Part shown: positions 4,019-5,808 of the stretch, piece by piece | How positions within the stretch are numbered: position 1 is the first letter of the stretch | Layout: each line of letters opens with the position of its first letter | Source of the DNA: a virus | IMG/VR virus record: IMGVR_UViG_3300045988_171124 | DNA length: 64,000 bases | Strand: one strand, 5' to 3' | Program-made: the position numbers and the translations under genes | Notes under the pieces: model-generated | Told to the model about the DNA's origin: nothing | The model's database searches: none | The model's input: the letters and a program-made list of their open reading frames with translations, nothing else

Positions 4019-4140
4019 TTTTTACATTCCTTTCTTGAGATGTGATTAGTGGATTCAATATAGACTTCTAAATGGAATTTTATTTTATTCTTAGGAATTA
4101 AATTTAATGTGAAATGAGAAGTCTATTAGTTTAATGTAAT

Positions 4141-4182
4141 TTTGAGTTAGATTTGAGTTAGATTTGAGTTAGATTTGAGTTA
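4141..4182. repeat. 11-bp tandem repeat TTTGAGTTAGA x3.8 (iteron-like)
   Basis: Direct reading of 4141-4182. The related word GATTTGAGT recurs at 4392 and 4562. Confidence 0.9.
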
Positions 4183-4425
4183 TTATATTAGACCTGGATG
4201 GTAATCTGGGTAGTGAGTGTAGCTGAGATTAAAATATACCCCATAATGGGAGAGTAGATGAGTTTTTGATGGTAAATTTCGATGAAATAGTTGTTATTGG
4301 TAAATTGGTAGGGTAGAGGTGTTTGGTCGATTTTTAGGGTGGAATTTTGATGTAAGGTAGGTGTAGATTATAGATGTGTTTGAAATACTGGGATTTGAGT
4401 GAGTGTAATAGATGAGATAAAAATA

Positions 4426-4457
4426 AAGCAGCACGTCCGGATTGGATGGCTGCTTTT
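4426..4457. terminator. hairpin with flanking A- and T-runs (possible bidirectional terminator)
   Basis: AAGCAGC (4426-4432) pairs with GCTGCTT (4449-4455), followed by TTTT and preceded by an A-run. It sits inside the ORF-free region. Confidence 0.45.
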
Positions 4458-4569
4458 AAATTTTTTAGTTAAATTGTGTGAATTAAGTTGTGTTTTTTTG
4501 ATACCGATAGATAACAGTATTTATATAGGAAAGAATGCGATTGGTGTGATGAGTAAAATGGGATTTGAG

Positions 4570-4890
4570 TAGGGATTTATTTGGATTTTATCGAATGAGT
4601 GTTTTGGTAATAGTGAAAAATTGCTAGTTATGCCAGGAAAACATTGAGATTTTGGTGTGGTGAGTGATGTATTGGGTATTGTGGGAAATTTGTGTAGCTG
4701 AACGGTATCGATTGATGGCTTGAATTTATTTGGATTGGGATAGATGGGTGTGTGATTTTGGTGTGATTTTTGGTGCCATTTTTGAGAGGGTGTGATGAGA
4801 GATGATAGGGATTTATTTGGATTTTACGATACGGTGGTCGATACGATGGGAGAGTGATGGAGAGTGTGAGTTGGTAGGGATTTATTGGGA
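4570..4890. repeat. dispersed copies of TAGGGATTTATTTGGATTTTA
   Basis: Identical 21-mers at 4570-4590 and 4806-4826; partial copy at 4875-4890. ATGGGAGAGT(A/G)GATG occurs near 4245 and 4845. Confidence 0.85.
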
Positions 4891-5598
4891 TAGATGCATT
4901 TTCCAGTCAGTGTGAAGATTGACCTGCTTATGCTGCTGAGCCGATCCTGGATCTGCTCCAGGATGGAAAGTACCCCCATCCCTTATTTTCCATGACTTCT
5001 AATAGATATTAGTGGACATGCTTTTATACTTCTATGATAGAAAAATATAGAAATTACTATACAAGACATACTGACGTTGTCTGGCAAGGGCTTTAAACTG
5101 GTATATAGTAGGAATTTTTCAAAAAAATAGGGTAAAAAGTCGTAGAAATCCAGTATTTACAAGGGTTTAATGGTTATTCATAAATGATAATTTTTTCGGT
5201 AGATAGCGTGAAAACTGTTGCATTTGCAACAGTATCGTATTTATAGATTTTATCTATAATAAACGATTTATCTATAGCTTTCACCTATAACACTCTCTGC
5301 CATAACTATAACCTATACCAAACTATCCAGCTATAACTTTTACTTATACCAGACTCACACACTATTATACACTTTGCACAATGCCTTTTCCGATTCCCTA
5401 ATTTTCACCCTCAAAAAGACACTTTTCACTCCACATCACCCCCCACATCACAGCCCACAACCCCACTAAATCAACCACTTTGTGCAATATGCCTATACCG
5501 CAGCTCAACTCACTGCTTACAAAATGTATTTCCTACACGGACGTTTTAAAACAATTACATAATTGCACACACAATAACCACAATACACTAAATTGTAT

Positions 5599-5808
5599 TT
5601 ACATTTCATCTAAATCCCTAGCTATTTTCTCATTTACAGCTTGATTTATAAAATCATTTACACTTTTATAACCATACTTGCTACAATGTACTTTCAATTC
5701 TTCCTTTTTTCCCTTGTTTACCGACAATGCTATTCTATCATAGTTATTTTTAGCATAATCATTTTTATATTGTGTTCTTGTCTGTTTATTCTCTTTATTA
5801 TCTGGCAT
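5599..5808 (-). CDS. ribbon-helix-helix (CopG/Arc-like) DNA-binding protein
   Basis: 69 aa. YDRIALSVNKGKKEELKVHCSKYGYKSVNDFINQAVNEKI fits a beta-strand/helix/helix RHH pattern. It is the only credible ORF in 4030-6545. Confidence 0.6.
   Translation of the reverse strand: MPDNKENKQTRTQYKNDYAKNNYDRIALSVNKGKKEELKVHCSKYGYKSVNDFINQAVNEKIARDLDEM

Follow-up and report, generated by a model that had tools for sequence, protein, structure and literature searches.

A noncoding phage region with mirrored base asymmetry and a conserved sequence box

In a stretch of phage DNA of 64,000 nt (IMG/VR record IMGVR_UViG_3300045988_171124; the whole stretch is referred to as the window) we analysed a gene-free region, positions 4019–5598, which adjoins a gene for an Arc-like ribbon–helix–helix (RHH) protein. 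This region, called the module in the following, consists of a left arm almost devoid of C on the + strand, a core of balanced composition and a right arm almost devoid of G on the same strand. The base composition of the arms is a target of selection and not the neutral composition of the genome. The mirrored layout recurs together with a short box in at least 14 mutually unalignable phage lineages. We read the module, tentatively and with slightly less than an even chance of being right, as the RNA component of a control region, immunity-like or early, that is attached to a repressor-like gene.

Results

The region is noncoding and its arms have opposite base asymmetry

The region is delimited by the start of a 115-aa gene (4018, − strand) and by the stop codon of the 69-aa Arc-like gene (5599, − strand). 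Between these genes no open reading frame (ORF) of more than 57 aa is present in 4019–5598. TAA stops occur in all six frames even when TGA and/or TAG are read as sense, and stop-free runs comprise at most 27–100 codons. On public contigs the gene callers had called no gene in the region, and the indels among relatives are not multiples of three. The region codes for nothing on either strand, as the first-pass annotation of the sequence had stated, and it is not the remnant of a gene. A recoded or decayed gene is ruled out by the TAA stops in every frame together with the lack of gene calls on the public contigs; relatives keep the region, and no trace of a decayed coding sequence was found.

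The left arm (4100–4900) contains 39 C in 801 nt of the + strand (4.9%) and has a GC skew of +0.72, with single 200-nt windows reaching +0.76. In the right arm (5231–5598) the same strand contains 25 G in 368 nt (6.8%); here the skew is −0.62 and falls to −0.73 in the windows. The core between the two oppositely skewed arms (4901–5230) is balanced. The C-depleted and the G-depleted arm that had been described from inspection of the letters were thus confirmed by the skew windows. The further statement that one arm is a degenerate inverted copy of the other did not hold: when the left arm was aligned with the reverse complement of the right arm (Smith–Waterman), the best local score was 22, as compared to 23.7 ± 2.9 for dinucleotide-preserving shuffles, and 233 of the 300 shuffles scored at least 22. 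The arms mirror each other in composition but not in sequence.

Four-fold degenerate sites of the + strand genes were taken as neutral reference. These sites have a GC content of 17%, a G content of 10% and a skew of 0.20, whereas the arms have a GC content of 35%, a skew of about 0.72–0.77 and 30–35% G (or C) on one strand, which is about three times the neutral level. Relative to the four-fold sites, G is enriched in the arms (C on the other strand) and C is not below the neutral level. Because a deamination-type bias cannot raise G, it cannot be the cause of this composition. In the whole window G exceeds C on sense strands, with a skew of about +0.35.

Close relatives keep the module and exchange parts of it

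The close relatives comprise about 25 distinct sequences from IMG/VR and from human-gut metagenome contigs of 170–216 kb, with 74–94% identity; the exact Arc-like protein was also found on a 211,544-bp ENA contig. Positions 4036–6123 are carried as a single block in about 25 relatives, while the genes to the left are swapped. In per-column conservation the arms equal the Arc-like gene. Two segments of the block occur as two unrelated alleles each, namely 4591–4925 (47% identity in a forced alignment, skew +0.65 to +0.78) and 5215–5370 (48–50% identity, skew −0.27 to −0.57), and three of the four possible allele combinations were observed. Since unrelated alleles, and also lineages without any alignable DNA (see below), keep the asymmetry, the composition itself must be under selection.

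The DNA belongs to a human-gut phage of about 200 kb, whose GC content is 31%. To the left of the region, the genes of at least 13 kb lie on the − strand; to the right of 6.5 kb, those of at least 57 kb lie on the + strand. The module of the window is situated at this switch from − to + strand genes, at the minimum of the cumulative skew. Sigma-70-type promoters and strong Shine–Dalgarno sites suggest a low-GC Gram-positive host. A host search with an 18-mer against genome contigs gave chance matches only, and the spacers of the phage's own array of clustered regularly interspaced short palindromic repeats (CRISPR) do not match the module.

Contig ends of independent relatives fall within 240 bp of the right arm (L079 and L106, 5521/5522; L107, 5452; L007/L095, about 5440; L004, 5283), and the clustered ends lie near a C6/G6 run and a 12-nt tandem repeat. 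Assembly breaks at a polymorphic or hard-to-sequence (G-run) spot are as likely an explanation as a physical DNA end. Against a genome terminus in the right arm it speaks that the ends lie at several positions and that the continuation was not present at the other end of contig 166216.

The layout and a short box are shared by distant lineages

The record MT835469.1 (176 kb, from human faeces) encodes one large protein that is 28.7% identical to its counterpart in the window. It contains a 2.6-kb ORF-free gap with a + arm (171861–172620), a core and a − arm (173321–173740, weaker as far as about 174100). The left edge of the gap is the starting point of − strand genes, and at the right edge a Cro/CI-type helix–turn–helix (HTH) gene, also on the − strand, ends. 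A BLAST comparison with the module of the window revealed no significant DNA similarity, only a few short boxes being present in the same order, and the flanking proteins of the two modules share no homology. The module of MT835469.1 is located about 8 kb away from the major strand switch and not at the skew switch. At the junction of its core and right arm an 11-bp unit is repeated 12.5 times in a periodic array (consensus ATTTATTCATA; 173118–173256, in L119 23118–23256), and at the equivalent place the window contains only a loose CTATAAC series (5252–5350).

The relatives found by means of the HTH gene of MT835469.1 (L120–L123) have the identical layout, including L122, whose HTH gene is 48% identical and in which RHH-like and HTH genes both lie upstream of the module. 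The common layout consists of a small repressor-like gene, an arm that is G-rich in the sense of this gene, the core, a C-rich arm and genes on the same strand. The partner gene of the module is accordingly an RHH gene in the window, a Cro/CI-type HTH gene in MT835469.1 and both in L122. Beside the module of L122 there are, at 7160–8883, genes for a LigD-like ATP-dependent DNA ligase and a Ku-like protein, an end-joining pair as judged from the translations, and an S-adenosylmethionine (SAM)-methyltransferase gene recognized by Pfam matches.

Every lineage has a box of the general form (A)ATG(T/G)AAA-N1-2-TAYCCCC where the left arm meets the core, and its strand is the same throughout; in the window it reads ATGGAAAGTACCCCCA (4963–4978, + strand). 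In several lineages the outer end of the left arm carries the box a second time. Within the window and MT835469.1 the full box is confined to the module, where it occurs once or twice. Its short core TAYCCCC is also present outside the module, in unrelated contexts only, some of them antisense to ribosome-binding sites; C5 runs are rare in these genomes.

IMG/VR was scanned for the box, and a locus was considered to have the full pattern when the skew reached +0.45 or more on the left side of the box and −0.40 or less on the right side; the resulting counts are lower bounds. The full pattern was found at no fewer than 29 loci, and among the matches listed four more are consistent with it (one-sided data) and 89 do not match. 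The full-pattern loci form at least 13 clusters without any alignment of 800 nt or more to each other or to the window, and their GC content is 0.26–0.36. Most of them, among the matches listed, have a AGTGGAAC box 35–45 nt upstream of the main box. At least 29 loci in at least 13 unalignable clusters mean that the module is widespread and old. A search for similar arms in related elements, which the first-pass annotation had recommended, was hence successful in the close relatives, in MT835469.1, in L120–L123 and in the further lineages of the scan.

Searches in reference collections gave no counterpart. With the whole window, Rfam 15 yielded no match that reached the gathering score; a single chance match (E = 3.4) was obtained in 3900–7100, and none at E ≤ 1 in the module of MT835469.1. 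Nucleotide similarity to INPHARED phages or PLSDB plasmids was not detected, and no description of such an element was found in the literature.

Repeats, hairpins, and promoter-like sites of the module

At the outer end of the left arm we read from the sequence an inward promoter-like site, TTGAGA-18-TATAGA (4031–4065, + strand), which in the window is below the threshold of the promoter scan. The 13-mer box TTTCTTGAGATGT at this site is common to MT835469.1, where TTGAGA-16-TATGAT at the equivalent place scans 10/12. An 11-bp tandem repeat, TTTGAGTTAGA, follows with 3.8 copies (4141–4182); its copy number ranges from 0 to 8 in the close relatives. Part A of the left arm (4184–4427, + strand; 5% C, 30% G) contains a degenerate copy of the conserved box at 4236–4245 (TACCCCAT in the window, TACCCCCAT in relatives). 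Part A is bounded by T1 (4428–4455), a strong hairpin between conserved A and T tracts, which is terminator-like in both senses. T1 folds with −19.2 kcal/mol (z −4.3) in the + sense versus −15.7 kcal/mol in the − sense, its variants show wobble-preserving changes by which G·U pairs are kept in the + sense, and it accounts for about seven of the 39 C of the left arm.

Part B1 (4470–4590, + strand) comprises the best conserved block of the arm, 4499–4535, which is TTGATA-N17/18-TATATA-like, and a AAATTTTT..AATTGTGTGAA box 3' of the terminator that is common to the window and MT835469.1. Part B2 (4591–4925, + strand) is the cassette with the two unrelated alleles. The highly conserved part of the core (4926–5213) has a balanced composition and contains a palindrome (4944–4964) and a promoter-like site on the + strand (5081–5109), whose −35/−10 spacing is constant across the variants. 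With a GC content of 0.29–0.40 versus 0.31 for the genome the core is not especially AT-rich, and no DnaA box was found in 4000–6000 when up to one mismatch was allowed.

A second palindrome forms the hairpin T2 (5214–5233, − strand), in which a covarying pair occurs as C–G, A–T, G–C, and G·T. In the relatives a run of four to seven U follows 3' of this hairpin in the − sense only, which suggests that the transcript of the Arc-like gene and the right arm ends at T2. T1 and T2 both have the properties of an intrinsic terminator, i.e. a stable hairpin, a U run and compensatory changes. The right arm (5234–5598, − strand; G-poor on the + strand) can be divided into R1 (5215–5370), which is the segment with two alleles, and R2 (5371–5598) with TTGCACAA/TTGTGCAA sites at 5374 and 5480. 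The arm abuts the 3' end of the Arc-like gene (5599–5808, − strand).

Both palindromes and the repeats listed in the first-pass annotation are present, the latter being the 11-bp repeat, two identical 21-mers (4570–4590 and 4806–4826) and GATTTGAGT words, of which five copies lie in 4150–4570 versus 1.2 expected in the whole window. The trinucleotide GAT is enriched in every block of the left arm including the unrelated B2 allele (z 3.3–4.5 for both B2 alleles), and GATGA and TGATG are enriched in the window as well as in MT835469.1. No GAT excess was found in the right arm. GGA is not enriched in three arm segments (z −1.3, +1.0, and −1.7). G-quadruplex or G-cluster signals are not enriched either; GGGG is absent from the left arm versus 4.8 copies expected in part B. 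Enrichment of YC dinucleotides is inconsistent between the two arms. Segment 4580–4699 folds with −3.8 kcal/mol in the − sense versus −31.7 kcal/mol in the + sense.

A TATA-rich motif (ATTCTTTCTATATAAT-like) has four local copies (4524–4541, 5102–5122, 5830–5849, and 5933–5954) that can be read as promoters both ways. The right arm and the Arc-like gene are bracketed by inverted repeats, 5102–5138 versus 5915–5952 (38 nt, 82%) and 5830–5849 versus 5944–5963 (20 nt, 95%). These motif copies and inverted repeats could be promoter duplicates, operators or an invertible segment.

Both arms are probably transcribed toward the core

Consensus promoters and terminators point to inward, i.e. convergent, transcription of the two arms, which we regard as probable. 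This direction is suggested by T1, which folds better in the + sense and keeps its G·U pairs there, and by T2, which has its U run in the − sense only. In the left arm of MT835469.1 the mid-arm and the end-of-arm terminators are in the + sense only, and the right-side terminators are in the − sense. The outer arm ends of locus L200 carry near-perfect sigma-70 promoters directed inward, 11/12 on the + strand and 12/12 on the − strand, both with a TG extended −10 element. A hairpin and a T run are located 15–40 nt 3' of the box on the + strand in L237 and L133. Moreover, the G-rich strands have 58–59% purine, like the sense strands genome-wide (about 60%). The first-pass annotation had proposed that convergent transcription would give G/U-rich, C-poor RNAs, and this part is favoured by our analysis; its further proposal that the composition specially favours R-loops is not, as the hybrid stability is ordinary (see below).

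Discussion

The module as a possible RNA part of a control region

For the reading given at the outset, an RNA part of a control region beside a repressor-like gene, the following course of events can be envisaged. Each arm would be transcribed inward. On the + strand there would be one or two units starting near 4070 and near 4535, the first of which would end at T1; on the − strand, transcription of the Arc-like gene would run on across the right arm and stop at T2. This would yield a pair or trio of long untranslated RNAs, whose G/U-rich, C-poor character would be what is selected and whose composition might be an exaggeration of the G over C bias of every sense strand in the phage. Rho loads on C-rich, G-poor RNA. 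As the arm RNAs would lack such a site, Rho would have nothing to load on, and the C-poor RNAs could be completed without translation. The left-arm RNAs would furthermore carry many short (U)GAUG-type words. Together with the terminators the convergent RNAs may keep the repressor unit apart from the genes that follow, bind a protein via the repeated words, or do both. The box could be the conserved domain at the 3' end of the left-arm RNA, or else a DNA site that binds a protein at the point where both transcripts meet. Among the candidate roles named in the first-pass annotation a pair of unusual noncoding RNAs fits best. An iteron origin is a weak candidate, and an iteron/DnaA-type theta origin is not supported, given the varying copy number of the 11-bp array, the lack of a DnaA box and the lack of a replication-family match in the neighbouring proteins. 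In general, the flanking proteins of the window give no family-level clue to replication, partition or antitermination.

Several points weigh against this interpretation. The direction of transcription is deduced from consensus promoters and terminators, the conserved promoter-like site of the core (5081–5109) aims outward into the right arm, and T1 is credible as a − sense terminator as well. Over all clusters the left-side terminators are not polar (12 on the + strand versus 10 on the − strand, among the matches listed), and the bias of the right-side terminators (31 on the − strand versus 13 on the + strand, likewise among the matches listed) could partly be a composition effect. Alignment folding gave near-zero energy over most arm blocks, with little conserved RNA secondary structure in either sense. 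One common binding word cannot explain both arms, since the right arm has no GAT enrichment, and Rho avoidance alone does not explain the composition, since G is enriched and C is not below the neutral level. Finally, any protein partner or RNA target of the arm RNAs is putative.

Comparison with known systems

The protein-sponge RNAs CsrB and RsmZ are, like the predicted arm RNAs, untranslated, several hundred nucleotides long and end with an intrinsic terminator, and in both cases a change of the overall sequence is tolerated provided that the composition and many copies of a short word persist. In contrast to these RNAs, GGA is not enriched in the module, the words of the module are GAT/UGAUG and do not occur in both arms, and Rfam gave no match. 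A noncoding transcribed stretch beside a small repressor gene, terminators within the untranslated region and alleles swapped as cassettes would also make the module comparable to the RNA immunity and leader loci of phage-plasmids (P1 c4, the P4 CI RNA, the N15 CA RNA) and to the lambda nut/rut leaders. These RNAs are short and act by specific pairing or through Rho-dependent sites on an outward leader, whereas the arms of the module are 0.4–1.2 kb long, composition-selected and apparently transcribed inward.

In the R-loop origins of ColE1 (RNA II) and T4 (oriF/oriG) a transcript runs toward a replication start and the RNA is G-rich with respect to its template, as the inward arm RNAs would be. 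Unlike these origins, the module shows no G clustering and no exceptional hybrid stability, and has terminators ahead of the core. With parC/ParR of plasmid R1 the module shares an RHH gene beside 11-bp tandem repeats (4141–4182, and the 12.5 copies in MT835469.1); it differs in that the repeat has 0–8 copies among close relatives and that other lineages have an HTH gene in place of the RHH gene. A gene of the ParM/ParA type was not found near the module. GOLLD and ROOL are gene-sized noncoding RNA loci in phages of low-GC bacteria, as the module may be, but these RNAs have a balanced composition, are highly structured and are contained in Rfam, whereas the arms of the module are nearly without conserved structure.

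Alternative explanations

The module could instead contain a cis-acting DNA site in the core, consisting of the box alone or of the box and the AGTGGAAC box, and serving as origin, packaging site or recombination/resolution site. A conserved phage protein would recognize this site, and the arms would be transcribed runways with terminators that insulate the site or set its supercoiling. We consider this rather unlikely, although a number of observations agree with it: the full box is confined to the module in the window and in MT835469.1, its orientation and position are constant in at least 14 lineages, and in the MT-type loci it lies between + sense and − sense terminators. In addition, the module of the window is situated at the strand switch and the cumulative-skew minimum, the 12.5-copy array abuts the core in MT835469.1, contig ends of relatives cluster in the right arm, and a weak integrase-family match adjoins the MT835469.1 module. 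However, a DNA site leaves hundreds of G-rich bases per side (on the inward strand) unexplained. The core lacks DnaA boxes and is not especially AT-rich, the 11-bp arrays vary in number and presence, the module of MT835469.1 lies about 8 kb off the strand switch, and the ends of this record are not at the box. DNA between convergent polymerases becomes overwound, which should hinder the melting of an origin. Improbable, in our estimation, is an R-loop-type origin, in which inward G-rich transcripts would hybridize to the C-rich template on either flank of the core and serve as primers for two leading strands. The geometry would suit, with inward primers on opposite strands around a centre and, in the window, a position at the switch of gene orientation, and GC skew downstream of a promoter is the usual predictor of R-loops. 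Against such an origin stands a hybrid-minus-duplex energy of −0.02 to −0.04 kcal/mol per nt, a nearest-neighbour estimate, which is within about one standard deviation of the coding sense (−0.006 ± 0.028); the gain is small because the arm RNAs are U-rich. The G runs are not clustered, with GGGG being absent from the left arm, strong terminators would release the transcripts ahead of the core, and the module of MT835469.1 is not at the skew switch.

If transcription were to start from divergent promoters in the core and proceed outward, the arms would be long C/A-rich, G-poor, unstructured Rho-loading leaders attenuating entry into the flanking operons unless an antiterminator acts. The outward RNAs would indeed be extreme for Rho loading (30–34% C, 5–7% G) and would fold weakly, as exemplified by the − sense of 4580–4699; A exceeds T on the C-rich strands, as in sense strands elsewhere in the genome, the conserved sigma-70-like site at 5081–5109 is directed into the right arm, and the flanking genes of the window diverge from the module. 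Nevertheless we find this explanation improbable as well. A leader directed rightward would cross the Arc-like gene in antisense, the terminators in the left arm of MT835469.1 are in the + sense only, the near-perfect promoters of L200 face inward, and the YC enrichment is inconsistent between the arms. In MT835469.1 and in L120–L123 genes on the same strand lie on both sides of the module, so that a diverging operon pair does not exist there. The composition of a rut leader (C-rich, G-poor, unstructured) is seen in the outward RNAs only, and the polarity of promoters and terminators favours the inward direction. Scarcely credible, at last, is a module without function, arising as a by-product of mutation bias (e.g. 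deamination of a displaced strand) or from a decayed or recoded gene. The strong genome-wide G over C bias of sense strands would speak for it, but neutral mutation bias is ruled out by the four-fold sites, which have 10% G compared to 30–35% in the arms. In addition, unrelated alleles and no fewer than 14 lineages retain the pattern, the conservation equals that of the neighbouring gene, and no frame is open under any code.

A possible new class of element

A further view, which we consider doubtful, is that the module represents a new class of element in which convergent, composition-selected RNAs meet at a two-box sequence confined to the module. Convergent transcription might then gate a site for replication, packaging or recombination, or the RNAs might titrate a host RNA-binding factor. 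The element would be common to many large human-gut phage lineages and unrelated to described RNA families or origin types. The single parts, i.e. promoters, terminators and a repressor gene, are ordinary; the combination of a mirrored, selected asymmetry with a shared box is apparently undescribed.

What is known of large gut phages comes almost exclusively from metagenomes, and their control regions have not been deciphered. The module can be recognized from sequence alone by the box and the mirrored G/C asymmetry beside a repressor-like gene, and it may serve as a handle for locating a regulatory or replication centre of these genomes. Annotation and assembly could benefit too, as related contigs tend to break inside the module. 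The module also raises the question why an untranslated RNA or a template must be purged of one base. If the RNAs are themselves the products, they would form a class of phage RNA that is unusual in being nearly free of structure.

Other features of the window

To the right of the Arc-like gene a second ORF-poor stretch extends over 5809–6757. The operator-like sequence TTGTGCAA occurs four times within 5374–6025, and a GC-rich segment (0.42–0.46) at 6100–6500 has no Rfam match. Downstream of this segment lies a 47-aa ORF (6549–6692) whose ribosome-binding site is strong; near 6727–6757 there is also a strong hairpin resembling a terminator. To the left of the module, positions 1438–1988 show an internal inverted self-similarity (about 70% over about 330 nt), with reverse-strand BLAST matches in all relatives.

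At 8199–8853 a toxin gene (Gp49-like, HigB/RelE-type) and an antitoxin-like HTH gene overlap; a perfect TTGACA-17-TATAAT promoter precedes them (8143–8171). A tyrosine integrase is encoded at 34802–35833. The CRISPR array mentioned above (49071–49304) consists of four perfect 36-nt repeats (GTTTTGTAACCATGTAAATTAAGAGGTATACAAAAC) and three 30-nt spacers, which have no match among the sequences compared. Directly downstream of it a 598-aa protein is encoded (49492–51288) that matches the NCBIfam family 'RNA-guided endonuclease IscB' with 251 bits (cut-off 175) as well as Pfam RRXRR and HNH. By these family matches the phage carries, at 49071–51288, a CRISPR array that is paired with a nuclease of the IscB type. 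Finally, 55534–56631 encodes a truncated adenylosuccinate synthetase (PurA) homologue of 365 aa. Phage PurZ enzymes make 2-aminoadenine DNA; the homologue of the window has a PurZ-like length, and its best matches among solved structures are ordinary PurA.

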